A stretch of 64,000 nt of DNA, taken from NCBI GenBank assembly GCA_963833225.1, contig CAWHXD010000019.1, forward strand, positions 374,075 to 438,074, written 5' to 3'. The notes under the pieces were generated by a model, which saw nothing but the letters and a program-made list of their open reading frames with translations, searched no databases and had not been told where the DNA came from. Of the stretch, positions 1-21,674 are shown piece after piece. This stretch comes from an uncultured Chloroflexia bacterium. Lineage in GTDB: Bacteria; Chloroflexota; Limnocylindria; Limnocylindrales; CSP1-4. The position numbers and the translations under genes are program-made. Numbering within the stretch: position 1 is the stretch's first letter; the number at the start of each line of letters is the position of its first letter.

Positions 1-1
1 C

Positions 2-217
2 CTGACGGGGGAGAAGACGCCGCTCGACTGCACCGCGTACGGGACCCTGTGCAGCCCCCAGAAGCCGCTGGGCGCGCCGATGGTCAGCTCCGAGGGCACC
101 TGCGCGGCGTTCTTCGGCGCCGGCCGCGGTCTCGGGCCCGGCGGGACGTTCTCGCCCTCGCTGCCGCTCATCTCCGTCGCCCCCGGGGGCGGCATCGCGC
201 CGGAGGGCGCCCGATGA
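2..217 (+). CDS. hypD: HypD hydrogenase maturation protein, C-terminal fragment (gene begins upstream of window)
   Basis: Frame starting at nt 2 reads ...CTAYGTLCSPQKPLGAPMVSSEGTCAAFF..., the conserved C-terminal Cys-rich HypD motif. The TGA at 215-217 overlaps the hypE ATG (ATGA). Confidence 0.8.
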   Translation: MTGEKTPLDCTAYGTLCSPQKPLGAPMVSSEGTCAAFFGAGRGLGPGGTFSPSLPLISVAPGGGIAPEGAR

Positions 218-1293
218 CGACCGAGCCCCAGCCCATCACCACGATCGATGCCGACGGGGTTGCCTGCCCCGCTCCCATCCCGGAGGACCAGCGCGTCATC
301 CTGGGCCACGGCTCCGGCGGCCAGCTGTCGGCCGCCCTGATGCGCGAGGTCCTGGGCCCGGCGCTCGAGGCCGCCTCGCCGGGCGGGGTCCTCAACGACG
401 CCGCCGTGGTCGATGTCGCGGGCACGCGCGTCGCCTTCACCACGGACTCGTTCGTGGTCTCGCCGATCCGGTTTCCCGGCGGGGACATCGGCGAGCTCGC
501 GGTCAACGGCACCATCAACGACCTCGCGATGATGGGCGCGGCGCCCCTGGCCATCAGCCTCGCGTACGTGATCGAGGAAGGACTGCCGCTCGAGGACCTG
601 CGCCTGATCACCGCCTCCGCCGCCGCCGCAGCGGTGAAGGCGGGTGCGCACATCGTCACCGGCGACACCAAGGTCGTCGGCCGCGGCGCGGCGGACCAGC
701 TGTTCGTCAACACCGCGGGCATCGGGCTCGTCCCGGACGGGGTCGCCCCGTCGGCGGACCGGGCGACCCCCGGTGACGCGGTCATCCTGTCGGGCCCCAT
801 CGGGCTCCACGGCGTGGCGATCATGAGCGTCCGCGAGGGCCTCGAGTTCGAGGTCGAGATCGAGTCCGACACCCAGGCCCTCAACGGCCTCGTGGCGGCG
901 ATCACGGCGGTCGAGCCGGGCGTCCATGTCCTGCGCGATCCGACCCGCGGCGGCCTGTCCTCGGCGCTCAACGAGATCGCGACGGCGTCACGGGTCGGGA
1001 TGGTCCTCAACGAGCCGGCCCTGCCGATCCCCGGGCCCGTCCGTGCCGCGTGCGAGTTCCTGGGCCTGGACCCGCTGCACGTGGCCAACGAGGGCAAGCT
1101 GGTGGCCATCGTGCCGGCCGCCTCCGCCGACGCGGTCATCGCGGCGATGCGGGCGATGCCCGAGGGGGCGGAGGCCGCGGTCATCGGCAGCGTGGTGGCG
1201 GATCACCCGGGGATGGTCACCATCCGGACGATCGTGGGCTCGGAGCGGATCGTGGACATGCTGGTGGGGGAGCAACTGCCGCGGATCTGCTGA
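214..1293 (+). CDS. hypE: HypE hydrogenase maturation (carbamoyl dehydratase) protein
   Basis: PurM/AIR-synthase-like sequence (HGSGGQLS, DSFVVSP, GDTKVV) ending in the diagnostic C-terminal PRIC motif. ATG 214 was chosen; the track start at 49 is an Arg-rich extension overlapping hypD. Confidence 0.93.
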   Translation: MTTEPQPITTIDADGVACPAPIPEDQRVILGHGSGGQLSAALMREVLGPALEAASPGGVLNDAAVVDVAGTRVAFTTDSFVVSPIRFPGGDIGELAVNGTINDLAMMGAAPLAISLAYVIEEGLPLEDLRLITASAAAAAVKAGAHIVTGDTKVVGRGAADQLFVNTAGIGLVPDGVAPSADRATPGDAVILSGPIGLHGVAIMSVREGLEFEVEIESDTQALNGLVAAITAVEPGVHVLRDPTRGGLSSALNEIATASRVGMVLNEPALPIPGPVRAACEFLGLDPLHVANEGKLVAIVPAASADAVIAAMRAMPEGAEAAVIGSVVADHPGMVTIRTIVGSERIVDMLVGEQLPRIC

Positions 1294-7640: not shown

Positions 7641-8876
7641 ATGGCCGTGACCGCCACCTTCCGGGTCCCGGGTGCGATCCTCACGGAGCGCGAGCACCGG
7701 GTTCCCCTGGACCACACTCGTCCCGACGGACGGTCCATCACCGTCTTCACCCGCGAGGTCGCCGACCCGGACGGGACCGACCGCCCGTACCTGGTGTTCC
7801 TCCAGGGCGGACCGGGCTTTGAGGCGGCGCGTCCCACCAGCCCGCCGTCAGGCTGGCTCAAGCGGGCCCTGGCGGAGTACCGCGTGCTCCTCCTCGACCA
7901 GCGCGGGACCGGGCGATCGACGCCGGTCGGCGAGCGCATCCCGGGCGAGACGGCGGAGGACCAGGCCGCCTACCTGGCCCTGTTCCGGGCCGATGCCATC
8001 GTGCGGGACTGCGAGTGGATCCGGCGCGAGCTCGACGTCGAACGCTGGACGACCCTTGGCCAGAGCTTCGGCGGGTTCACCTCGCTGACGTACCTCTCGT
8101 TCGCGCCCGAGGGACTCGCCGCGGCCCTGATCACCGGTGGCCTGTCGCCGATCGGGCGCCCGATCGATGATGTCTATGGGGCGACCTGGGCGCGTGTCCT
8201 GGAGGCCAACCGCCGGTACTTCGAGCGGTACCCCGATGACCGGGATCGGTTGAAGGACGTCAACGCGCGCCTCGACGGCGACGACGTGCGCCTGCCCTCT
8301 GGCGACCGGCTGACCGGCCGGCGTTTCCGCCAGATGGGCATGTGGCTCGGCGCCTCCGACGGGTTCGAGCGCCTGCACCATGTCCTCGAGCTGCCGTTCG
8401 GCTCACCGGCGTTCCTGCACGATGTCGACAACGCCGTTGGCTGGGTGCGCAACCCGATGTACGCGACGCTCCACGAATCCTCGTACGCGGACGGGGTGCC
8501 CACCCGCTGGTCCGCGCATCGCCTGGCGCCCGACGAGGCGCTTGCCGGCGAGGTGTTCACGGCCGAGCAGGTGTTCCCGTGGATGTGGGAGGAGTACGGC
8601 GGCCTGCGGCTCCACGCCGCCGCCGCCCAGCTCCTCGCGGAGCACCCGTGGCCTCGTCTGTACGACGCGGCAGCGCTGGCGAGCAACGAGGTCCCCGTCG
8701 CGGCGACGATCTACGTGGACGACATCTACGTGGAGCGCGCGTTCGCCGAGGAGACGGCGGCGCGGGTCCGCGGCCTGCGGCCGTGGATCACCAACGAGTA
8801 CGCCCACAACGGCCTGCGTGCGGACGGTGAGCGGGTCGTGGGTCGCCTGATCGACATGGTGAAGGGCCGCGCCTGA
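7641..8876 (+). CDS. alpha/beta hydrolase, prolyl aminopeptidase-like (S33 family)
   Basis: LQGGPGFE oxyanion region, LLLDQRGTGRSTP and nucleophile elbow GQSFGG. Confidence 0.8.
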   Translation: MAVTATFRVPGAILTEREHRVPLDHTRPDGRSITVFTREVADPDGTDRPYLVFLQGGPGFEAARPTSPPSGWLKRALAEYRVLLLDQRGTGRSTPVGERIPGETAEDQAAYLALFRADAIVRDCEWIRRELDVERWTTLGQSFGGFTSLTYLSFAPEGLAAALITGGLSPIGRPIDDVYGATWARVLEANRRYFERYPDDRDRLKDVNARLDGDDVRLPSGDRLTGRRFRQMGMWLGASDGFERLHHVLELPFGSPAFLHDVDNAVGWVRNPMYATLHESSYADGVPTRWSAHRLAPDEALAGEVFTAEQVFPWMWEEYGGLRLHAAAAQLLAEHPWPRLYDAAALASNEVPVAATIYVDDIYVERAFAEETAARVRGLRPWITNEYAHNGLRADGERVVGRLIDMVKGRA

Positions 8877-8903
8877 CGGAAGGCCCGCGCCGCGGGGGCC
8901 GGA

Positions 8904-9518
8904 TCAGCCGCCGACCGGCGGGGCGCTCTGCTGCCGCTCGAAGAGGTAGACGAACTCCGGTCCGTTGTGGCAGATCCAGCAGTTGTCGCCGCGGTTGGCC
9001 ATCGACGCCGGCAGCGGCGCATGGTCGTCGACGCCATGACACGCCGAGCACGGTTGGGTGCCGCCCATGTGCTCCGGCCGCAGCTCGGGGACCGCGCTGG
9101 CCCCGGCCTCCAGCCGTGTCTGGTGGCAGATCAGACAGTCCTCCTTGTGGAGGCTGCTGTGGCCCTCGGCGGTCTTGACCAGGCTGGCCTCGGAGTGGCA
9201 CGCGGTGCAGTCGCGCCAGCCGGCCAGCGGATGACCCATCACCGGGATCGGCTTGGTCCCGACGCCGCCGCTGGCGGTGAGATGGCAGCCGTTGCAGTTG
9301 GCGTCCGGCGGCATCTCGATCCCCACCGGCGACAGGGCCATGGCAGACTTCGGGGTGGGGGTGGGCGCCGGCGTGGCCCGCGGTGTCGGCGCCTCGGCGA
9401 TCTCGCCCGCGACATCCGGCACGGCGACCAGGACGAGGAACGCGCCAACCACCAGGATCCCGAGCGTCAGCAGCAGGACCACGATGCGGAAGCCGTACAT
9501 CGAGACCGCGCGGATCAC
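8904..9518 (-). CDS. membrane-anchored pentaheme c-type cytochrome
   Basis: One N-terminal TM helix (FRIVVLLLTLGILVVGAFLVLVAV), a Pro/Thr linker and five CxxCH motifs (CNGCH, CTACH, CLICH, CSACH, CWICH). The ATG overlaps the upstream stop (ATGA at 9515-9518). Confidence 0.9.
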   Translation of the reverse strand: MIRAVSMYGFRIVVLLLTLGILVVGAFLVLVAVPDVAGEIAEAPTPRATPAPTPTPKSAMALSPVGIEMPPDANCNGCHLTASGGVGTKPIPVMGHPLAGWRDCTACHSEASLVKTAEGHSSLHKEDCLICHQTRLEAGASAVPELRPEHMGGTQPCSACHGVDDHAPLPASMANRGDNCWICHNGPEFVYLFERQQSAPPVGG

Positions 9519-10883
9519 GACCCGGCTCCCTGGGCTGTCCGCTGCGCGGCGGCGACGGGTGTCGCGGCTCCCGGCTCAACCGCGGCTGCGTCACCGCTCT
9601 CGACGTGCTCCTCGTGGTCATGCTTGCGGAGCCACGGCCAGCTGAAGAACAGGTGCGTGTCGCCTTCGCCCATGTTGAGGTAGCGCTCCGCGAGGGTGTA
9701 GAAGAACGCCATGAACGCGCCCCGCACCCACCAGGATCGCGATCTCCACCATCGTCGGCGTGTAGGTCGCGTACGGGTAGACCACGGTGCCGGCGAGCGC
9801 GGTGACCGGGGCGATCTGCCCGGCGGCGACGAACAGGTACCGGTCGAGCAGGATCCCCGCGAGGATCAGCACGCTCGCGGCAACCATTGCCTCGGGGCGC
9901 CGGGCGATCGGCAGCGAGATGATCACGGCCGGGACCACCAGCCCGAGGATGACCCGCGCCCAGAACTGCGCGGCCAGCGGCCCCGTCAGGAGGGCGGTGG
10001 TCGCCTCGCGAAGGCCCCGCTCCTCGCCGTTCAGCCCGGCTGCGATCATGCGCACGGTCAGCGCGCCGACGAGCGCGATCCCGATGGCGAGCAGGAGCCG
10101 TGCCGACGGCAGCGCGACCGGTGCCGCCCGCTCGAAATCGGCGAGCCGCAGCCGGTGGACGAAGTAGAAGACGATGCCCAGCAGCGCGGTGCCGGCAAGG
10201 AACGCCGAGGCGACCATCGTGATCGGCGTGAAGATCCCGTTCCAGAACACCTTCGCACCCAGGACGCCGAACACCGCGCCCAGCGTCGCCGGCGCCAGGA
10301 TCGCGATGATCGAGGCGCAGGTGCAGGCGTACTGGTGGATCTTCGGATGGTCCGTGAACAGGCTCCAGACCTCGACGACCAGGACCACGAGATAGGCACC
10401 GTAGAACACGCCCATCCACCACATGGGCGACGAGGGGGAGGGGACCAGCACCGCCCCGAAGATCATCCGGACCGGGTAGTGCAGGTCGAGGGCGATGATC
10501 AGGAACGCCGTGGTGAGCGAGAGGAGCGCGAGGATCGCGTGGCGCTTCTCGAACGGCTGGAAACGCTCGATGCCGAACACCGTCCCCAGCGACGACGCGA
10601 GGCACAGCCCGCTGGTCATGATCGCGAAGAACGCGTAGCCGATGATCATCAGCCCCCACTCGAACGAGGGCGTGGTCCCGAACACCTCCCAGCCGGGTGG
10701 CAGGGCCACGATCGCCGCGACGGCCATGACGGCCATCAGGGCGAGCAACAGCCCCAGCCATGCCTGGAGCACGACGGGCATGCTCCTGACCTCGGTCACG
10801 AGCGAGCGGGCGAGCGGTCGCGGGGCCAGCGGGATCCGGTAGTCCAGCAGGTGGAGCTCGAGCGGCGTGACGGTCGCGCGCAC
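9515..10883 (-). pseudogene. NrfD/PsrC-family polytopic quinol-interacting subunit, interrupted by a +1 frameshift near 9720-9723 (or a sequencing error)
   Basis: ORF 9618-10883 is NrfD-like and hydrophobic up to ...TMVEIAILVGAG, then becomes Arg-rich nonsense. The last helix (AFMAFFYTLAERYLNMGEGDTHLFFSWPW) continues in ORF 9515-9727, whose stop forms ATGA with the next gene. An extra G sits in a GGGG run. GTG start at 10883 follows AAGGAGGG. Confidence 0.8.
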
Positions 10884-10886
10884 CCC

Positions 10887-11903
10887 CTATCCCTCCTTGT
10901 TCACCGGGCCGAGGTAGAGCACCCGGGGTTGGGTGCCGTACTCGGGCCACAGGGACTTCGGGTACTGCGTGCGCAGGACCGTGCTGATCTCGCTCTCCGG
11001 GTCCGCGGCGTCGCCAAACTTCCGGGCACCGACGGGACACACCTCCACGCACGCCGGCTGGAGGTTGCGGCTGATGCGGTGGTAGCACCAGGTGCACTTG
11101 TCGGCGACCCCGGGCGTGTCGTTGGGCGCCTGGTCGCCGGCAGGGACGATGTACCGCGCGCCGTAGGGGCAGGAGACGACGCAGTACCCGCAGCCGATGC
11201 AACGGCTGGCGTCGACGAGGACCACCCCGTCCACGGTCTTGTAGGTGGCGCCCACGGGGCACACCGAGGTGCACGGGGAGTTCGCGCACTGCATGCACAG
11301 CCGCGGCATGAAGTAGGCCTCGTCCACCATCTTGCCGGCGGCCGTGGGATCGGTCGAGTCGAACGGGAAGCCGTTGATGCCGCCGTCCGGGGAGTCGATG
11401 TGGATCTCGCCGTCCGTGGTGACCACGTGGCGCTCGATCCAGGTCCGCGTGTACTGGGGCTCCTCCGGGACGTGGTTCTCCTCCTTGCAGGCCGAGACGC
11501 ACAGGCCGCAACCGATGCACGCCGCCGTGTCCACCACGTACGTCCAGCGTCGCGCCTCGGGGTCGTAGGTCGGGATGATCGGCGCGACGTCGGAAGGCTC
11601 CTCCGCAAAGACCGGGGTGAACCTCGCCAGCGCCGCCGCTCCCACCAGGCCGCCGGCGAGCGCGAGACCGAACCCCAGGAAGGCGCGGCGGCTGGTGGAC
11701 GCAGCCGTGATCGCGGGCGCGAGCTCCTCGAGCGGGACGAGCGTCGCATCGGCTGGGGCGGCCTCGACCGGCCGCGGCTCCGCGGGGGCTTCACCAGCCT
11801 CGGCCGGCCGCGCCGCCGCGGGGACGCCGGCGGGCACGGGCGCATCACCGGGCGTGTCCGCGCCGGCGACCGGGGCCGTGGTGGGGGTGGAGTCGTCGGT
11901 CAC
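10887..11903 (-). CDS. NrfC/HybA/PsrB-like 4x[4Fe-4S] ferredoxin subunit with twin-arginine signal
   Basis: Tat motif TSRRAFLGFGLALAGG. Four Cys clusters: CIGCGLCVSAC, CMQCANSPCTSVCP, CIGCGYCVVSCP and CTWC...CVEVCP. GTG start at 11903 overlaps the upstream stop (GTGA). Confidence 0.88.
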   Translation of the reverse strand: MTDDSTPTTAPVAGADTPGDAPVPAGVPAAARPAEAGEAPAEPRPVEAAPADATLVPLEELAPAITAASTSRRAFLGFGLALAGGLVGAAALARFTPVFAEEPSDVAPIIPTYDPEARRWTYVVDTAACIGCGLCVSACKEENHVPEEPQYTRTWIERHVVTTDGEIHIDSPDGGINGFPFDSTDPTAAGKMVDEAYFMPRLCMQCANSPCTSVCPVGATYKTVDGVVLVDASRCIGCGYCVVSCPYGARYIVPAGDQAPNDTPGVADKCTWCYHRISRNLQPACVEVCPVGARKFGDAADPESEISTVLRTQYPKSLWPEYGTQPRVLYLGPVNKEG

Positions 11904-12628
11904 GGTGACACCTGGGGGTTGGGGGAGGCGTCGCCCGCGAGGGCCGCGGCGCCGGCGTCCTCGGCGGGACCCCGTCCGGCGGCGTGGCACTCGAGGCAGC
12001 GGGCGTCATCGCTGGTGCCTGCGGGGTGGCGCTGGTTGCGGGCCTTGAAGCCGTCGGGTCCATGGCAGGTGAGGCAGGGCGGCAGGTCATTGAGCGGATG
12101 GAGGACGACCGGCGGCCGATTGGCCGTTCCAACGTGCGGATCGTGACATTCGAGGCACTGGGACACGTAGTGCTGGCCGGGCAGGACCTGGCGGAAGCCC
12201 ATCGGGCGGCCGGTCGCCGCGGTGTGACAGCGCAGGCAGACCTCGTCGGTGGGGACACGGACGGGGACCTGCTCCGAGGTGGCCCGGTCACCTGCCTCGG
12301 CATGCTCGAGCAGGGCGCCATGGCAGCTCTGGCAGCCGATGTCCTTGTGGGCGGCAAGGACCAGCGCCGTGTGCTCTCGCTCGTGGCAGGCCCCGCAGGT
12401 GCTCGACGCGGTGTACGAGAGCTGCAGACCCGCCCACTGCTTCGCGTTGACCGTGCTGTCGAGCGAGTACCGGAGGTACGGGCTCCATGCCATCGCCACG
12501 CCGACCACGAGCACGATCGAGAGGGCCGCGGCGCCGCCCAGGATGGCGGCAGCCGCAAGGAACCCGCCCCGGCGCGTGCGCGGCCGCACCGAGTCCCAGA
12601 AGCGGCGCAGCCGCTGCGACGGCTTCAC
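11900..12628 (-). CDS. membrane-anchored hexaheme c-type cytochrome
   Basis: N-terminal TM helix (FLAAAAILGGAAALSIVLVVGVAMAW) and six CxxCH motifs (CGACH, CQSCH, CLRCH, CLECH, CLTCH, CLECH). GTG start overlaps the regulator stop (GTGA at 12625-12628). Confidence 0.9.
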   Translation of the reverse strand: MKPSQRLRRFWDSVRPRTRRGGFLAAAAILGGAAALSIVLVVGVAMAWSPYLRYSLDSTVNAKQWAGLQLSYTASSTCGACHEREHTALVLAAHKDIGCQSCHGALLEHAEAGDRATSEQVPVRVPTDEVCLRCHTAATGRPMGFRQVLPGQHYVSQCLECHDPHVGTANRPPVVLHPLNDLPPCLTCHGPDGFKARNQRHPAGTSDDARCLECHAAGRGPAEDAGAAALAGDASPNPQVSP

Positions 12629-13341
12629 AGGACGGAGGGGTTCAGGAGACCGCGGCGGACCGTGTAGCGCAGCAGCTCGACCCGGTCGTGCAGGCCCAGC
12701 TTCTCCATCACGTTGGCGCGGTTGTAGTGGACGGTCTGCTGCGAGAGGCGCAGCGACTTCGCGATCTCGCGGTTGGTGTGGCCCATGGCCGCCAGGAGCA
12801 GGATCTGACGCTCCCGTTCGGTCAGCGACTCGTACGGGTCATCGAGCGTGGCATCAGGGGTCCGGCGCACGTAGGTGTCGACCATCCGGGTGACGATGGC
12901 CGGGCTGACGTAGGTGTGGCCGGCGGCCACGCTGCGGACCGCGCCCGTGATGTCGCTGTCCTGTGCCTCCCGGGTCAGGAAGCCATTCGCTCCCGCCTTG
13001 AGGGCCACCGAGAACTGCTCCGTGGCGCAGCGGCAGTCGAGCGCGATGATCTTGGCGTCCGGGCAGGCTTCGCGGATCGCCTCGATCGAGTCGTAGGTGC
13101 CGCATCCGAACCCGCCGACGCTCTCGCACTCGAGGACGATCACCGCCGGTTGGACGACGCGGGCCTGGTCAACGACCGAGTCCCGGCCGTCGACCTCGCC
13201 AACGACGTGCATGTCCGGGGTGGCGTCGATGACCGACCGCAGGGCCGTCGAGAGCATCGGGAAGTCGACGATCGCGAGCAGCACGCCAAGCCGGTCCACG
13301 GCGGGCACGGCCCCGCCCCGGGCATCGGAAACGGAGGTCAT
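12625..13341 (-). CDS. NarL/FixJ-type response regulator with LuxR HTH and a degenerate, Cys-rich receiver domain
   Basis: C-terminal LTERERQILLLAAMGHTNREIAKSLRLSQQTVHYNRANVMEKLG (LuxR HTH). The receiver aligns to NarL by eye, but the key residues are substituted (see findings). ATG at 13341; the track ORF to 13746 is an Arg-rich extension. Confidence 0.85.
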   Translation of the reverse strand: MTSVSDARGGAVPAVDRLGVLLAIVDFPMLSTALRSVIDATPDMHVVGEVDGRDSVVDQARVVQPAVIVLECESVGGFGCGTYDSIEAIREACPDAKIIALDCRCATEQFSVALKAGANGFLTREAQDSDITGAVRSVAAGHTYVSPAIVTRMVDTYVRRTPDATLDDPYESLTERERQILLLAAMGHTNREIAKSLRLSQQTVHYNRANVMEKLGLHDRVELLRYTVRRGLLNPSVL

Positions 13342-13352
13342 GACGGGCGTGA

Positions 13353-13691
13353 TCAGCGTGCCTGCGGCGTTCCCGTGTCGTCCCCGTGGCGGTTCCTGAC
13401 GACGTATGCCCAGAAGAAGGGCATCGCAACCATGAGCACGGTGACGAGCGCGGCGGCGAGCATGGTCGCCTGGGCGCCGAGGTTGAAGTAGACGAGCATC
13501 AGGGCCACGTAGGCCAGCGCGGAGCCGCACCACAGGGTGAGGGTCACGAGGCCCAGCCAGGCGGCGATCCGGGCGCCCCGCCCGCCCCGAGACCCGTACG
13601 CGAACCACGCGACGAGGGCCACGATGCCCTCGACCAGGAACAGCATCGGGACGACCAGCGCGACGGTTTCGGACAGTTCCGTGATCTGCAT
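13353..13691 (-). CDS. small membrane protein (3-4 TM), unknown function, first gene of the cytochrome operon
   Basis: 112 aa, strongly hydrophobic (ALVVPMLFLVEGIVALVAWF, AAWLGLVTLTLWCGSALAYVALMLVYF, MLAAALVTVLMVAMPFFWAYV). The stop lies 11 nt before the regulator ATG. Confidence 0.6.
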   Translation of the reverse strand: MQITELSETVALVVPMLFLVEGIVALVAWFAYGSRGGRGARIAAWLGLVTLTLWCGSALAYVALMLVYFNLGAQATMLAAALVTVLMVAMPFFWAYVVRNRHGDDTGTPQAR

Positions 13692-13812
13692 CCCCGAGGT
13701 CCCCAGTGCGTATCGCGGCCGCGACAGTGGTCGATAGGGGAATCATCGGTCACGGCCGTCGGTTGGAGCAGGGGCCAAGGGGGAAAAAGTGGCCCGTACC
13801 GGTCGATACATC

Positions 13813-13847
13813 CGGACGGCCGTTCGGACCCGGATCGAACGGCCGTC
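13813..13847 (-). terminator. 13-bp perfect-stem hairpin (GGACGGCCGTTCG-9 nt-CGAACGGCCGTCC)
   Basis: Read directly, about 100 nt downstream of the mtnA stop (13949) on the minus strand. Confidence 0.5.
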
Positions 13848-13948
13848 CGCATTCGGGCGATGTGCGTGGCCCCGGAGCCGACGCTCGTCGCCGGCCTGCC
13901 GCCAGGACCGCTCCGCCGGCGTGATCGGCGTCCCGCTCCTCGTGCCCC

Positions 13949-14956
13949 TCAGGCCCCGCCCGGCGTCTCCCCGCGGTCGGTCCGGATGACCCGCCGGTCG
14001 GTGACGATGGCGGTGATGAGCGACGCCGGCGTGACGTCGAACGCGGGGTTGAGCGCCCGGGTCCCGAGCGGAGCGGACGGGATATCGCGGAAGGACGTGA
14101 CCTCGCGGGCGTCCCGTTCCTCGATCACGATTCCGTCGCCGGTGGGCGTGCCGGCATCGATCGTGGACTCCGGGGCGACGACCAGGAACGGGATCCCCGC
14201 GTGGCGCGCGGCGAGGGCAAGCGCCAGGCTGCCGACCTTGTTCGCCGTGTCCCCGTTCGCGGTGATCCGGTCCGCTCCGATCAGCGCGATGTCGGCCAGC
14301 CCGCGGGCCAGCACCGACGCTGCCGCCCCGTCGACGAGCAGACGATGCGGGGCCCCCATCCTGGAGAGCTCCCACGCCGTCAGCCGCGCGCCCTGCAGCA
14401 GGGGCCGCGTCTCGAGCGGAAGCGCCTCCTCCAGCAGGCCGCGGGCATGAAGCTCGCCCACGACCCCGAGCGCCGTTCCCCGCTCCACGGCGGCCAGCGC
14501 GCCCGTGTTGCAGATGGTCATCGCCCGGACCCGGGGCCGAGCCACGAGCGTCCGGACCAGGTCCGCGCCACGGGTGGCCATCGCGGCACAGGCGGCAATG
14601 TCCTCGTCGCGGACGGCGAGCGCCTCGGCGAGGACCGAAGCCAGGCCGCCGGGCAGCTTCGCCAGGGCACGATCCGTTCCCCAGGCGAGGTTCACCGCCG
14701 TTGGGCGTGCGGCGCGGAGCCGTGTCGCGCCGGCCCGGACCGCTCGTGCATCACCGGGATGGAGGCGTGCCAGCAGCGCGACGCCCATGGCACCCGCGAC
14801 GCCCAGCGCCGGCGCACCCCGCACGGCGAGCCGCGAGATGGCATCCACGAGGGCATCAGGCGACGCCACTCGGAGGATGACGAGCTCGTCCGGGAGCCGC
14901 GTCTGGTCGATGAGGTGGATCTCGCCGTCAACCCAGTCGATCGTGCGTTCCGTCAT
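13949..14956 (-). CDS. mtnA: S-methyl-5-thioribose-1-phosphate isomerase / eIF-2B-like family
   Basis: IDWVDGEIHLIDQTRLPDE...AISRLAVRGAPALGVAGA...NTGALA...GADRITANGDTANKVG is the typical MtnA layout. Confidence 0.85.
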   Translation of the reverse strand: MTERTIDWVDGEIHLIDQTRLPDELVILRVASPDALVDAISRLAVRGAPALGVAGAMGVALLARLHPGDARAVRAGATRLRAARPTAVNLAWGTDRALAKLPGGLASVLAEALAVRDEDIAACAAMATRGADLVRTLVARPRVRAMTICNTGALAAVERGTALGVVGELHARGLLEEALPLETRPLLQGARLTAWELSRMGAPHRLLVDGAAASVLARGLADIALIGADRITANGDTANKVGSLALALAARHAGIPFLVVAPESTIDAGTPTGDGIVIEERDAREVTSFRDIPSAPLGTRALNPAFDVTPASLITAIVTDRRVIRTDRGETPGGA

Positions 14957-17002: not shown

Positions 17003-18864
17003 CTATCGCCGGCGCAGGCGCTCGCGGGCGTTGTCAAGCAGGATGAACAGCCCAAGGCCCGCAAGGACCAGCAGCACGAGCTCGCGCAGATACGTCCACG
17101 CGAGCAGCAGCGCGGACACGGACGCCAGGATCACCGTCACTCGGAGCAGGAGCGTCTCGACGCGTCGCTGGCGCGAACGACTCGATCGCGAGGTATCCGA
17201 TCACGAGCAGCATGACGGTGGCGCCCACGGGCAGGATCTGGAACCACAGGATCACGGCGAGCGCGATGACCAGGACCCCGACGCTCAACGCCGCCCACGT
17301 CTCGGCAAACACGCGCCGCCGGGTGTGGTCGGGCGGCTCCGGGGTGGCGGTAGACGTGAGGTGTTCCCGAGGATCGCCGCGGTAGCCCGCGTCATAGCGG
17401 GCGAGATACGCCTCGGCCGCGGCCGCCGCGGCCCGCAGCTCCGCCGCGGCCGCCCGCTGCGACGCGAGGCGGGCCTCGCCGTCGGCCAGCTCGGTCGCCC
17501 GGCGAGCCCGGTACTCGCCAAGCCCGGAGGCCTCGGCCAGGGCACGGACCTCAACACCCAGCCCGGGAAGGGTCGAGGCAAGCTCGGATGCCTCGGCTTC
17601 GATCGCGCGCCGTTCCGCATCGAGGGTCGCAACGCGGCCCTCGAGCGTCGCACGCGTCTCGGCCGGCGTCGGGATCCCGGCCAGCCCGACGAAGCTCAGC
17701 GGGTCGTTCCAGGACTGGCGGACGGTCCCGGCGCGTGTGTACTTCGGCCCCGCGGGCGCTCGCTCGCCCGCCATCCGGTCCCCGGTGTCCAGGCCCCACA
17801 GGCCCCGGTACGCGTCCACCCACCCGTCGGCATCCGAGACCAGGACGGGGCTCCACGCGATCTCCTGGCCCGGGCCGACGGTGACGCCGTCGCCACGCGC
17901 ATAGTCCACGAACGGGATGCTCACGAGGCGCGCGATCATCTCGGCAAGGTCGCCGGGGTCGGGCTGGTTGAGCGTGTCGCGCCACGTCCGTCGGACCCAG
18001 TCGAGAATGCCGCGCTGCAGCGCGGACCCGGGCAGGGCAAGCCGCATGATGTACTCGCCAGGCTCGACGTACGTCGCATGCGGACCCGGCGCCGGGGTAG
18101 ACGACGACGTGCTCGCCCTCCTTGCGGAGCGTGGGGTCGTCCCAGCGGCGGCGCAGGTCCGCGCCACGCTCGTCGTGCGCCGCGGCCGCGAACCAGATCG
18201 GGATGACGTCCCCGTCGGGCAGCTGCTCGAGGATCACGAAGGCCTGCTCCCAGTCGGCCTCGTGGTCATTGGCGCCCTCGAACGTCGAGCGCCAGTCATT
18301 CATCGGGTAGAAGAACAGGTAGTGCAGGACGACCCAGCCATCCTGGCGGACGACGCGTCCGTGATAGCTGACCCGCGGGTCCCTCGAACGCAGGCGCTGG
18401 TACTTGATTGCGGCCGCGGCGGCCGTGCCGCCCGGGACCTTGCCGCGCACGAGGAGCGAGGCCACGACCCCGGCGTCCAGCATGCGGGCGAGGATGCCCA
18501 CGCGAGCCAGGCGCCCGGGCGCGCGGAACCGTGGCCGGTCTGGCCGGTTCATGAACCTCGCGAGCTCGAGCGGGTTGAGCGGCTCCTGCACGAAGCGCAG
18601 GAAATGGGCTTCCCCGGGCGGCGCGTCGCCAATCGCCGCCAGGCGCTCGGCGTCGAGCTCGCCGACCGGGACCACCACCCGTGCGGCTGACGGCGTGGGG
18701 CCAGAGAGCAGGTCGCATGCGGCCAGGTAGCTCGTCGCCGGGGTGGGGAAGAACTGCTCCCCGTGCGTGAACCGCAGGATCGGCTCGAAGCGGCGAAGCA
18801 GGGCCTCGTCCCCATCGCCCGGGCTCGCCGGGGCCGCGGGCGCCACGCCCACCGGGACGGTCAT
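17003..18864 (-). pseudogene. membrane-anchored protein with FFYPMNDW...NDHEADWE motif (tentatively Vps62/DUF946-like), coiled coil and C-terminal TM helices; two frameshifts
   Basis: Three reading frames must be joined. The first join is ...EGEHVVVYPGAGS|HATYVEPGEYIM... near 18080-18087. The second is ...LLVIGYLAIESFA|QRRVETLLLRVTVILASVSALLLAWTYLRELVLLVLAGLGLFILLDNARERLRRR* near 17168-17176, with TAG at 17003-17005. Both sites are extra C/G in short runs. Confidence 0.7.
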
Positions 18865-20322: not shown

Positions 20323-21674
20323 TCAAGCGTTCGCGATCTCGTCCCGGAACGCGCGGATGTCCTCCAGGCGGCGCCGGAGCGCGTTGAGGAAGCGGGCGCC
20401 TGTCTCGCCGTCCACGATCCGGTGGTCTGCCGAGAGCGTCAGCTTCATCACCTGCCGGATCCCGATGCCGCCGTCGACGGCCATCGGGGTGGCGATCGCC
20501 GAGGACACGGCCAGAATCGCGGCCTCGCCGGGGTTGATGATCGCGCTGAACTCCTCGACGCCGAACATCCCGAGGTTGCTCACGGTGAACGTGGAGCCGG
20601 CCAGGTCGTCGACCGGGATGGAGCCGTCCCTCGCCGCCGCCGCCAGCGCCGCGACACGATCGTGGAGCGCCGCGATGGTGAGACGGTCCGCGTCACGGAC
20701 GACGGGCACCACGAGCCCCGACGGGACCGAGACCGCCACCCCGAGGTGGACGCGCCGACGGGGATAGACGACCTCGCCGTCGGTGCGCGAGTTGACGTCC
20801 GGGAACTCGGCCAGCGTCTGGGCGGTGGCCGCGAGCACGAAGTCGGTCACGGTGAGGGTGTGGCCCTCTGCCTTGAGCTCCGCGCGGAGCGCGAGCACGC
20901 GGGTGACGTCCACCGCCACCGTCACGGTGAAGTGCGGCGTCGTCTGCCAGCTGTTCGTGAGCCGGGCGGCGATGGTCCGGCGCATCCGGCTCATCGGACG
21001 CGGTGCGTCCTCGCCCTCGACCGGGGGGATGACCGGCTGGGCGACGGGCACCGTCGCGGGGGCTGGCGCTGTGGCTGCGGGTGCCGCCGCGGGCGTGGGT
21101 GCCCCGGCCACGGGGACCGGTCGCGCGGTGGCCGCGGCCCGGACGTCGCGCTCGACGATCCGGCCCTCGGGGCCCGAGCCGGTGACCGAGAGCGGGTCAA
21201 CGCCCAGCTGCGCGGCAAGACGGCTCGCGCGCGGGCTGATCTTCACGCGGCCGGGGGCCGCGGGCGCGGGCGAAGGTGCGGCCTCCGGTGCCGCGGCGGC
21301 CGCTTCCACCGGGGCCTCTTGTGCCTGCGGCGAGGCGGGCGTCGCGACCGCGCGCAGCACCGCGTCCGCGACGGGCGCGGTCACGCGGCGTGACCGGCTC
21401 GGCCGGCGTCTCGGGGACGGCCTCGCCTGGCTGGCCGATCCAGCCGCAGACCGCGTTGACCGGTGCCGTCTCACCATCGGCGACGACCCGGGCGAGGAGC
21501 ACGCCCTCCTCGAATGTCTCGACCTCCATCGAGCTCTTGTCGGTCTCGATCTCGAACAGGACGTCGCCCTTGTGGACGGGGTCGCCCACCTCCTTGCGCC
21601 AGAGGGTGAGCACGCACTCCTCGGTCATCTGGCCGGGCTTGGGCATCAGGATCGGGGTGGCCATCGGTGGCTCC
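20323..21674 (-). pseudogene. dihydrolipoamide acyltransferase (E2) of a 2-oxoacid/acetoin-type dehydrogenase complex, frameshifted in the Ala/Pro linker (or a sequencing error)
   Basis: The lipoyl domain (MATPILMPKPGQMTEE...EIETDKSSMEVE) is in one frame, with ATG at 21674 after AAGGAG. The E3-binding segment (ISPRASRLAAQLGVD) and catalytic domain (SADHRIVDG) are in ORF 20323-21477. The frames switch near 21380-21400. Confidence 0.8.

Follow-up and report, generated by a model that had tools for sequence, protein, structure and literature searches.

A conserved FeS/NrfD cassette flanked by two multihaem cytochromes, with no catalytic subunit encoded nearby, in Chloroflexota of the Limnocylindria lineage

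Introduction

Soils, fens, groundwater and lakes harbour abundant Limnocylindria (Ellin6529), but no isolate survives and their respiration is therefore known from gene lists only. A 64,000-nucleotide stretch of DNA from an uncultured bacterium of this lineage (GenBank assembly GCA_963833225.1, contig CAWHXD010000019.1, positions 374,075 to 438,074; hereafter "the window") carries on its minus strand an operon of six co-directional open reading frames (ORFs; 13691-8904), which encodes an NrfC-like iron-sulfur (FeS) protein and an NrfD-like membrane protein placed between a hexahaem and a pentahaem c-type cytochrome, preceded by a small membrane protein and a transcriptional regulator. No catalytic subunit (molybdopterin, NrfA or hydrogenase) is encoded in this operon or in its flanks. 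The locus thus raises the question of what an NrfC/NrfD pair does when two cytochromes occupy the places beside it, and where its electrons would come from or go to.

Modules composed of FeS, NrfD-like and multihaem subunits that lack a catalytic subunit are already known, and include NetBCD, alternative complex III (ACIII), Qrc and Nhc. NrfBCD of Escherichia coli and NetBCD of Aeromonas each consist of a pentahaem cytochrome, NrfC and NrfD; the NetBCD module has no catalytic subunit, and its electrons continue to an extracellular electron-transfer chain. What is new in the present case is a lineage-wide architecture in one abundant and poorly known lineage, and no earlier description of the cassette was found in the searchable literature. 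Its gene content, cofactor motifs, fold class and conservation indicate that the cassette is very probably a quinone-coupled electron-transfer module without a catalytic subunit. It is accordingly a strong candidate for passing electrons to extracytoplasmic acceptors, or for bridging the quinone pool to oxidases or denitrification enzymes, and would be a clear case of evolution converting the scaffold of a molybdoenzyme into a pure electron wire.

Conservation of the cassette

A scan of one genome per species identified 175 relatives, and the loci of the best 80 were analysed. Almost all of the 80 belong to metagenome-assembled genomes (MAGs) of Chloroflexota that are labelled Limnocylindria, Limnocylindrales or "uncultured Chloroflexia". 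The haem-FeS-NrfD-haem order is kept in essentially every one of them: NrfC adjoins NrfD in 80/80 loci, and where the contig leaves room, the hexahaem cytochrome is found upstream in 66 of 67 loci and a pentahaem-type cytochrome downstream in 76 of 77. The atypical regulator described below is adjacent in 51 of the 58 loci with enough flank on both sides, and the small membrane protein lies upstream of the regulator in 42 of the 62 loci with room for it. This order holds down to 42-47% NrfD identity. Because it is conserved in 80 independent loci, the arrangement is not a product of chance. When the library was clustered at 50% identity, the core family comprised only about five full-length clusters; hence, it is compact and specific to this lineage.

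The absence of a catalytic partner extends beyond the operon. No structural gene for a molybdopterin enzyme, NrfA, a hydrogenase or a formate dehydrogenase was present within 10 kb of the cassette in any of the 80 loci, and tblastn searches with human COX1 and CYB detected neither COX1 nor cytochrome b within 10 kb, in these loci or in the window. The initial annotation of this DNA, which was made from the letters and their ORFs, had described an NrfC/NrfD module between two multihaem cytochromes with no catalytic partner in the operon; the first description is borne out by motifs, Pfam matches and the order in 80 loci, and the second now applies to the wider neighbourhood as well. Clustering of all flanking ORFs revealed no other conserved partner. 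Several neighbours do recur, but they were rejected as partners, as Pfam identified them as unrelated genes (cysE/cysK-like, amidase, permeases, dihydroorotate dehydrogenase, acetyl-CoA synthetase and adenylate cyclase).

Two cassette copies were observed in several MAGs (L005/L007, L015/L054, L018/L076 and L017/L048), with approximately 57-89% identity to the NrfD of the window. The second type of cassette often has 7-8 haems in its downstream cytochrome and copies of the regulator on both sides.

The membrane and iron-sulfur subunits

The NrfD-like subunit matches PF03916 with 90.2 bits (cut-off 25.8) over residues 68-357. Its sole curated matches in NCBIfam are QrcD (34.5 bits, cut-off 570) and DsrP (32.5 bits, cut-off 350), and the cyt_nit_nrfD model gave no match. 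Sequence and profile searches against the chains of the Protein Data Bank (PDB) returned solely spurious matches (DltB and an acyl-CoA dehydrogenase), so that kinship to solved NrfD-like subunits is visible by fold only. An AlphaFold2 model with 10 long helices (predicted local distance difference test, pLDDT, 68; predicted template-modelling score 0.64) was therefore compared with known structures using Foldseek, which placed the ActC subunits of four ACIII structures first (6btm_C, 8k9e_C, 6f0k_C and 6lod_C; E 8e-9 to 3e-7, the lowest value being that of 6btm_C), with a TM-score of approximately 0.6 and a sequence identity of 14-15% only, followed by ActF (8e-5) and then PsrC (5e-3). In this model, the fold is nearest to that of ActC. 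NrfD-like proteins are cofactor-free, quinone-interacting subunits that pass electrons to a four-cluster FeS partner at the membrane's P side, and their quinone/quinol-binding residues lie on the first four-helix bundle's P side (PMC8076601); the subunit encoded here is correspondingly predicted to provide a quinone/quinol site.

The NrfC-like subunit matches Fer4_11 with 72 bits, and all 16 of its cysteines are kept in 61-62 of 62 homologues, which suits four [4Fe-4S] clusters. It consists of ferredoxin domains only and lacks the molybdopterin-like B1 domain. The protein carries a twin-arginine translocation (Tat) motif of its own, SRRAFLGFG, by which it is predicted to be exported to the outer face of the membrane; a strict Tat-like motif was identified in 42 of 62 homologues. 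Residues 1-70, ahead of this motif, form an unusually long, Pro/Ala-rich and poorly conserved extension. Among the NCBIfam models, DsrO was the best match (185 bits, cut-off 200), followed by TtrB, NrfC and ArrB; the cyt_nit_nrfC model scored 134 bits against a cut-off of 377.6, and QrcC 106 bits against 400. Among solved structures, PsrB was the best match (2vpw_B; 8e-42, 147 bits), ahead of ActB (6e-20, 75 bits). The profile searches that had been suggested with the initial annotation returned PF03916 and Fer4_11 as described above, and both cytochromes match Cytochrome_C7 in Pfam; none of the curated equivalog cut-offs for Nrf, Qrc, Dsr, Hmc or Ttr was passed.

The two cytochromes

In an alignment of 27 sequences, the hexahaem cytochrome shows six CXXCH motifs and six further invariant histidines (H94, H109, H153, H165, H177 and H201); because the number of these additional histidines equals that of the motifs, all six haems are predicted to have bis-His ligation. 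Its profile matches MtrA (6r2q_A, 4e-9), OcwA (6i5b), the N-terminus of octahaem nitrite reductase and cytochrome c554, and weakly matches ActA, including the N-terminal helix (8k9e_A, 6e-4); in NCBIfam, the DmsE-family decahaem model was matched at 4e-9, under its cut-off. The pentahaem cytochrome consists of an N-terminal transmembrane (TM) helix, a Pro/Thr-rich linker and a domain with five CXXCH motifs, and its profile weakly matches NrfB (2ozy_A, 7e-4). Candidates for its distal ligands are H96, H120, H124, H149/150 (a histidine occupies 149 or 150 in 30/30 sequences) and the invariant M173 in the motif APLPxxMxxR. On the basis of this conservation, four bis-His haems and one His/Met haem are predicted. 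The CXXCK motif of the catalytic haem of NrfA is absent from both cytochromes.

The initial annotation had assigned an N-terminal membrane anchor to each cytochrome. The TM helix of the pentahaem protein agrees with this assignment, but the anchor of the hexahaem protein is open to doubt. A conserved, twin-arginine-like RPRTRRG (residues 15-22; window 12550-12590, minus strand) stands just before the hydrophobic helix, and behind the helix comes an AxA-like site (AMA|W), so that the helix could be a cleavable signal peptide instead of an anchor.

The two cytochromes are distant paralogues of each other (hhalign probability 97%, E 1.5e-10), and in divergent relatives the downstream cytochrome has 7-8 haems. 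In three relatives, NrfD is encoded in one frame with the downstream cytochrome of five or eight haems (P0245, with eight haems, P0244 and P0048; L090 7001-9040), and these fusion proteins argue for a physical association of NrfD with the cytochrome.

Multihaem proteins that are large or have a PKD domain adjoin the cassette in a few divergent loci only. In L060 (4002-18833) and L066 (3182-18700), the cassette lies within a large cytochrome island without an adjacent atypical regulator; this island encodes an NHL propeller, a 6-haem protein, a 7-haem PKD-domain protein, a TPR protein, CcdA, ResB, ResC and a 10-haem NapC/NirT-like cytochrome. As to whether the lineage can mature c-type cytochromes, a point on which the initial annotation had made its proposal depend, ResB, ResC and CcdA are encoded next to the cassette in these relatives. 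In L040 (5021-6982) and L048 (309-2369), a large cytochrome of 653-687 aa, in which 24 CXXCH motifs were counted in L040, is encoded just upstream of the cassette, and its N-terminal part is hexahaem-like.

The regulator, the small membrane protein and the leader

The regulator had been described as LuxR-type in the initial annotation. This holds for its C-terminal helix-turn-helix domain, which matches GerE with 65.6 bits (cut-off 23.5), but the protein is more than a helix-turn-helix alone and has the complete layout of a response regulator, with a receiver that is degenerate: Response_reg was matched with 24.2 bits, below the cut-off of 30.2, and the NarL-type models of NCBIfam were all under their cut-offs. 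To compare the receiver residues, 32 cassette-linked sequences were aligned with a sequence that we take to be that of E. coli NarL and with two regulators of the canonical NarL type that are encoded in the same loci. At the position of the phospho-accepting D59 of NarL, 30 of the 32 sequences have Glu, all 32 have Arg at the position of K109, D13 is replaced by Val, Phe or Leu (Val in the window protein), and S/T87 by Asp or Glu, whereas the two canonical regulators keep all of the phospho-receiver residues. Because the phospho-accepting Asp and the other catalytic residues are replaced, the protein cannot be a conventional phospho-Asp response regulator.

Core-clade members also have 3-4 conserved cysteines at the former active site. 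In the window protein there are four (72, 80, 103 and 105), which occupy the position D+1 and a three-residue insertion in the beta3-alpha3 loop (30/32 sequences each), T+1 (31/32) and T+3 (23/32). It is plausible that a redox, metal or Fe-S signal is sensed through these residues, although only in the core clade, since the most divergent members have 0-2 cysteines; for the same reason, an Fe-S cluster as a universal trait of the regulator was considered and toned down. A precedent is FixT of Caulobacter, a receiver domain that binds an Fe-S cluster through four cysteines and acts as a sensor of O2 or redox state (PMC7078487). As in FixT and other atypical response regulators, catalytic residues of the receiver fold are replaced and cysteines lie near the former phosphorylation site. 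FixT is, however, a single-domain receiver with C53, C56, C59 and C64, whereas the protein encoded here is a complete NarL-type DNA-binding regulator with its cysteines at other positions. The initial annotation had remarked on an unusual coupling of a transcription factor to a respiratory complex; the linkage is indeed tight, but a co-transcribed regulator is not unusual as such, and the odd part is the lost phospho-Asp together with the conserved cysteines. The protein lends itself to study as a candidate response regulator that depends on cysteines and is not phosphorylated. Furthermore, the word "fused", which had been applied to this relation, stands for overlapping genes and not for a fused protein.

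The small protein is predicted to have three TM helices, shows the strongly conserved motif GGRxARxAAWLGLVTLTLWxGSAxAF in a 41-sequence alignment, and matches no Pfam or NCBIfam family significantly; it may be either an extra subunit or a partner of the regulator. In the leader upstream of its gene, the box GATGATTCCCCTATCGAC was identified at 13747-13730 (minus strand). Of 38 upstream regions, 11 contain the corresponding consensus, GAYGAT-N6-7-ATCGAC, at -52 to -61 from the first gene, and these 11 all belong to the closest clade; the box is a possible operator, to which the co-transcribed regulator would bind. The leader also contains a GGGG(A) Shine-Dalgarno-like run. Neither a sigma-70-like promoter nor an intrinsic terminator was identified in 8700-14100, where consensus scans are uninformative for this phylum, and the Rfam scan of the window returned nothing. 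A conserved leader RNA structure was rejected as lacking support: individual hairpins are predicted, but RNAalifold gave no consensus on 35 sequences and the shuffle z-scores were mostly weaker than -2.

Relationship to known systems and origin

The nearest relatives of the NrfD-like subunit outside the clade (33-40% identity) are found in Desulfuromonas soudanensis, a Clostridiales MAG and a Bacillota MAG. Their operons encode a molybdopterin subunit with a Tat signal, a 180-aa FeS subunit and NrfD, in one case with rhodanese genes alongside, and these outgroup proteins likewise fail every curated equivalog. The FeS subunits of this sister clade begin at the ferredoxin fold and have no signal peptide. 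The NrfC-like subunit of the cassette has its own Tat signal, and the molybdenum subunit is therefore not needed for its export. On these sequence comparisons, the cassette is best seen as a Psr/Phs-type scaffold in which the molybdenum subunit has been replaced by cytochromes. The initial annotation had allowed for a clade whose catalytic partner is encoded elsewhere and always co-expressed; in the sister clade, the partner is encoded inside the operon, and it is gone here.

As the closest known architectures, the initial annotation had named NrfBCD, NetBCD and Qrc/ACIII-like complexes. This list can be refined, as the fold is nearest to ActC, the sequence is nearest to the Psr/Phs anchors, and no curated threshold is passed. 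The cassette shares with the Psr/Phs molybdoenzymes (PsrABC, 2vpw) the nearest NrfD relatives and, in PsrB, the best solved relative of NrfC; it differs in that cytochromes stand in place of the molybdopterin subunit and in that NrfC has gained a Tat signal and an insertion. With ACIII it shares a 10-TM NrfD-like quinol subunit, a Tat-exported four-cluster FeS module, a multihaem cytochrome that is encoded first and has a helix at its N-terminus, a further cytochrome that is the likely exit, and the lack of a substrate-converting site. However, the molybdopterin-like ActB1 domain, ActD and the second NrfD-like subunit ActF are missing, each cassette having one NrfD gene; the first cytochrome carries six haems instead of five, and the exit cytochrome is a pentahaem protein (5-8 haems in relatives) rather than the monohaem ActE. 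The FeS subunit is also closer to PsrB/DsrO than to ActB, and there is no linkage to oxidase genes.

NrfBCD and NetBCD resemble the cassette, by description, in their combination of a pentahaem cytochrome with NrfC and NrfD, and the weak profile match to NrfB agrees with this. In contrast to these modules, the membrane subunit of the cassette is of a 10-TM ActC-like rather than the 8-TM NrfD type, a hexahaem cytochrome and a dedicated atypical regulator are added, and both cytochromes have N-terminal hydrophobic helices. NrfABCD differs further, since the cassette has neither CXXCK nor an NrfA-like gene and does not reach the nrfC or nrfD models. Qrc and DsrJOP likewise combine a cytochrome with a periplasmic FeS subunit and a 10-TM NrfD-like subunit, but all scores against Qrc and DsrMKJOP are below cut-off, no QrcB, DsrM or DsrK is encoded nearby, and the organism is not a sulfate reducer. 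In Melioribacter roseus and the candidate phylum MBNT15, an FeS subunit of the complex iron-sulfur molybdoenzyme type and an NrfD-like protein are combined with a multihaem protein that replaces the molybdopterin subunit, and these predicted clusters have been proposed to be quinol:acceptor reductases that feed periplasmic cytochromes (PMC9386147). These are other, diderm phyla, and their descriptions, to which the comparison is confined, mention neither a pair of cytochromes on the two flanks nor a small TM protein or an atypical regulator.

Because the curated scores are under cut-off and subunits are missing, the cassette falls outside every named system tested, and it has a fixed architecture of its own. 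Its distinct features are paralogous cytochromes on both sides, the combination of an ActC-like 10-TM subunit with a PsrB/DsrO-like FeS subunit, a conserved 3-TM protein, and a non-phosphorylatable, cysteine-containing regulator.

Proposed function and alternative readings

What is known of the NrfD family (PMC8076601), taken together with the anatomy of the subunits, suggests the following electron chain. Four subunits, or five with the small membrane protein, would form a complex on the outer face of the cytoplasmic membrane, in which the NrfD/ActC-like subunit would exchange electrons and protons with the menaquinone pool. The Tat-exported NrfC/PsrB-like subunit, with its four [4Fe-4S] clusters, would then conduct the electrons to eleven c-type haems, comprising those of the bis-His hexahaem cytochrome, of the MtrA/NrfB/c554 packing type, and those of the pentahaem cytochrome on its Pro/Thr-rich tether. 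The predicted His/Met haem of the tethered protein would be the likely exit or entry point and the interface to an external partner. The acceptor could be diffusible or surface-exposed, examples being metals in soluble or chelated form, humic quinones and further cytochromes, and the complex would serve as a conditional respiratory branch whose expression is set by the co-transcribed NarL-type regulator, probably by redox or metal sensing through cysteines and without Asp phosphorylation. The module itself would be derived from a Psr/Phs-type molybdoenzyme whose molybdopterin subunit was exchanged for cytochromes.

The reading that we prefer, namely that the cassette is a conditional outward branch in which a menaquinol dehydrogenase delivers electrons to an extracytoplasmic acceptor, is put forward with even confidence, the core statement made in the Introduction being included in this estimate. 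It is suggested by the dedicated regulator, the MtrA/OcwA-like hexahaem cytochrome, the cytochrome islands of divergent loci and the predicted monoderm envelope; the initial annotation had called the organism monoderm-like, and the lineage has indeed been predicted to be monoderm (bioRxiv 10.1101/2021.08.23.457424). Several points weigh against it. Neither the window nor most of the loci have a further multihaem cytochrome nearby, and it is unlikely that a cell wall could be spanned, without other proteins, by eleven haems on short tethers. The cassette occupies a stable, housekeeping-like syntenic position, and the invariant Met of the pentahaem protein predicts a higher-potential haem, which is commoner in chains to oxidases or copper enzymes than in metal-reducing conduits. 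In addition, some NrfD-cytochrome fusions may be indel artefacts of long-read assembly, the NrfD model is of moderate quality only (pLDDT 68), and the most divergent regulators keep the Glu but have few or no cysteines. Finally, Limnocylindria generally possess cytochrome c oxidases, nirK and nosZ, which fits a role resembling that of complex III.

That role is the content of the strongest alternative, which we consider possible, with a probability below or about equal to that of an outward branch: the cassette would be a minimal substitute for ACIII, that is, the main or an alternative menaquinol:cytochrome c oxidoreductase, feeding the aa3-type oxidase and/or NirK and NosZ on the periplasmic side, with the His/Met haem of the pentahaem protein as the outlet, the hexahaem protein in the place of ActA and the NrfD-like subunit in that of ActC. 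The ranking of ActC in the fold comparison, the weak match of the hexahaem profile to ActA and the invariant candidate Met ligand all agree with this proposal, as do the occurrence of coxABC, cydAB and nirK in Ellin6529/Limnocylindria MAGs, nearly all of which encode a cytochrome c oxidase, and the wide, syntenic distribution of the cassette in the class. It is opposed by the missing ActB1 domain, ActD, ActE and ActF, by the greater similarity of NrfC to PsrB/DsrO, and by the fact that the cassette is never beside oxidase or cytochrome b genes in the 80 loci; the dedicated regulator and the paralogues with 7-8 haems also hint at a conditional rather than a housekeeping role. A bolder form of this proposal is doubtful: many Limnocylindria would have no quinol:cytochrome c oxidoreductase other than the cassette, which would be a minimal analogue of complex III/ACIII with four subunits that arose independently after a Psr-type molybdoenzyme had shed its molybdopterin subunit and taken up two small cytochromes, and it would be switched by a novel NarL-type regulator in which the defunct phosphorylation pocket has been remodelled into a Cys-based redox or Fe-S sensor.

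Slightly less credible again is a reversed flow of electrons as in Qrc, in which the cytochromes would accept electrons from an extracytoplasmic donor (a Tat-exported uptake hydrogenase, a formate dehydrogenase, Fe(II) or reduced humics), and the FeS and NrfD-like subunits would reduce menaquinone, possibly electrogenically. The subunits follow the logic of QrcACD (a hexahaem cytochrome, an FeS protein and a 10-TM NrfD-like protein), QrcC and QrcD are among the NCBIfam matches, uptake hydrogenases are carried by Limnocylindria according to the literature, and both in the window and in its closest relatives hypE/hypD are located at a distance of approximately 8 kb. Nevertheless, the QrcC and QrcD scores are far below their cut-offs, no QrcB-like subunit is present, and no structural gene for a hydrogenase or formate dehydrogenase lies within 10 kb in any locus; the hyp linkage is limited to the closest clade, with unrelated genes on both strands in between.

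It is highly improbable that the cassette simply supplies the FeS subunit and the anchor for an ordinary molybdoenzyme of the Psr/Phs/Ttr-like kind, with the catalytic subunit encoded at another place in the genome, because, although the nearest outside NrfD relatives sit in operons with a molybdenum subunit and PsrB is the best PDB match of NrfC, no molybdenum subunit is encoded within 10 kb in any of the 80 loci, NrfC has a Tat signal of its own whereas the sister-clade FeS subunits depend on the molybdenum subunit, and two cytochromes, at times fused to NrfD, hold conserved flanking positions.

The frame break in nrfD

As assembled, nrfD is split into ORFs 10883-9618 and 9727-9515, which might be taken to mean that in this genome the operon is decaying into a cluster of pseudogenes. 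A real break would cost the protein TM10, as the frame shift falls just ahead of this helix. By tblastn, the frame switches at 9720/9721, and a DNA alignment of the window with five relatives located the cause as a single extra base in a G/C run (Table 1). When this base is removed, the protein has approximately 90% identity over 100% of its length to intact homologues of 451-457 aa; even as assembled, both halves retain 80-91% identity to intact relatives and a third-position GC content above 0.9. Moreover, comparison with the same relatives revealed at least three additional frame breaks in two genes within 22 kb: two in the gene 17027-18852 (minus strand), which matches a 609-618-aa protein in three frames (-2, -3 and -1), and one in a 2-oxoacid dehydrogenase E2 gene (20335-21664, minus strand), which matches in two. 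A sister MAG contig from the same project (L002/L006) also has many broken genes, and this pattern suggests that indel errors are spread through the assembly. Because the change is one base in a G/C run and other genes are broken as well, the extra base is probably a long-read indel error of assembly and not a sign of pseudogenisation; a decaying operon is very improbable. The initial annotation had noted that a real frameshift in an operon that is not expressed would speak against its proposal; the break is best explained otherwise.

Features of the operon and its surroundings

The six genes described in the initial annotation as a chained minus-strand operon were recovered at the same coordinates (Table 1). 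The small protein gene and the regulator gene are separated by an 11-nt gap, and the stop codon of the regulator overlaps the start of the hexahaem cytochrome gene in a GTGA; GTGA overlaps also join the hexahaem gene to nrfC and, in the repaired frame, nrfD to the pentahaem gene, whereas nrfC and nrfD are separated by a 3-nt gap with AAGGAGG ahead of it. The GC content at third codon positions is high in all six ORFs, as expected of genuine genes, in a window of 71% GC.

Table 1. Coordinates of the operon and associated features in the window
Feature	Position	Strand	Remarks
Upstream non-coding leader/promoter region	13692-13948	-	
Small 3-TM protein	13691-13353	-	112 aa
NarL/LuxR-family regulator	13341-12625	-	238 aa
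Hexahaem c-type cytochrome	12628-11900	-	242 aa, 6 CXXCH
NrfC/PsrB-like iron-sulfur subunit	11903-10887	-	338 aa, Tat motif, 16 Cys
NrfD/PsrC-family membrane subunit	10883-9515	-	455 aa once repaired, 10 predicted TM
Single-base insertion in G/C run of nrfD	9719-9725, at ~9722	-	window GCGGGGC vs relatives GC-CGGC
Pentahaem c-type cytochrome	9518-8904	-	204 aa, 5 CXXCH

Apart from the two cytochromes, no CXXCH protein is encoded in the 64-kb window. A HypE-like (AIRS) gene is located at 1-1293 (plus strand), and in the closest relatives it is followed by HypD (compare L001 19905-21374), so that hydrogenase maturation genes lie approximately 8 kb from the cassette in the nearest clade only. A functional tie to these genes was considered and dropped, because the linkage is confined to that clade; unrelated genes on both strands lie between.

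The genes that flank the operon are unrelated to it and encode MtnA, a CASTOR/POLLUX-like channel, an alpha/beta hydrolase, an aldo-keto reductase and permeases. In one of the 80 loci (L059, DATIUS010000038.1), the contig that carries the cassette is binned as Candidatus Sulfomarinibacteraceae (Acidobacteriota), which reflects either mis-binning or horizontal transfer.

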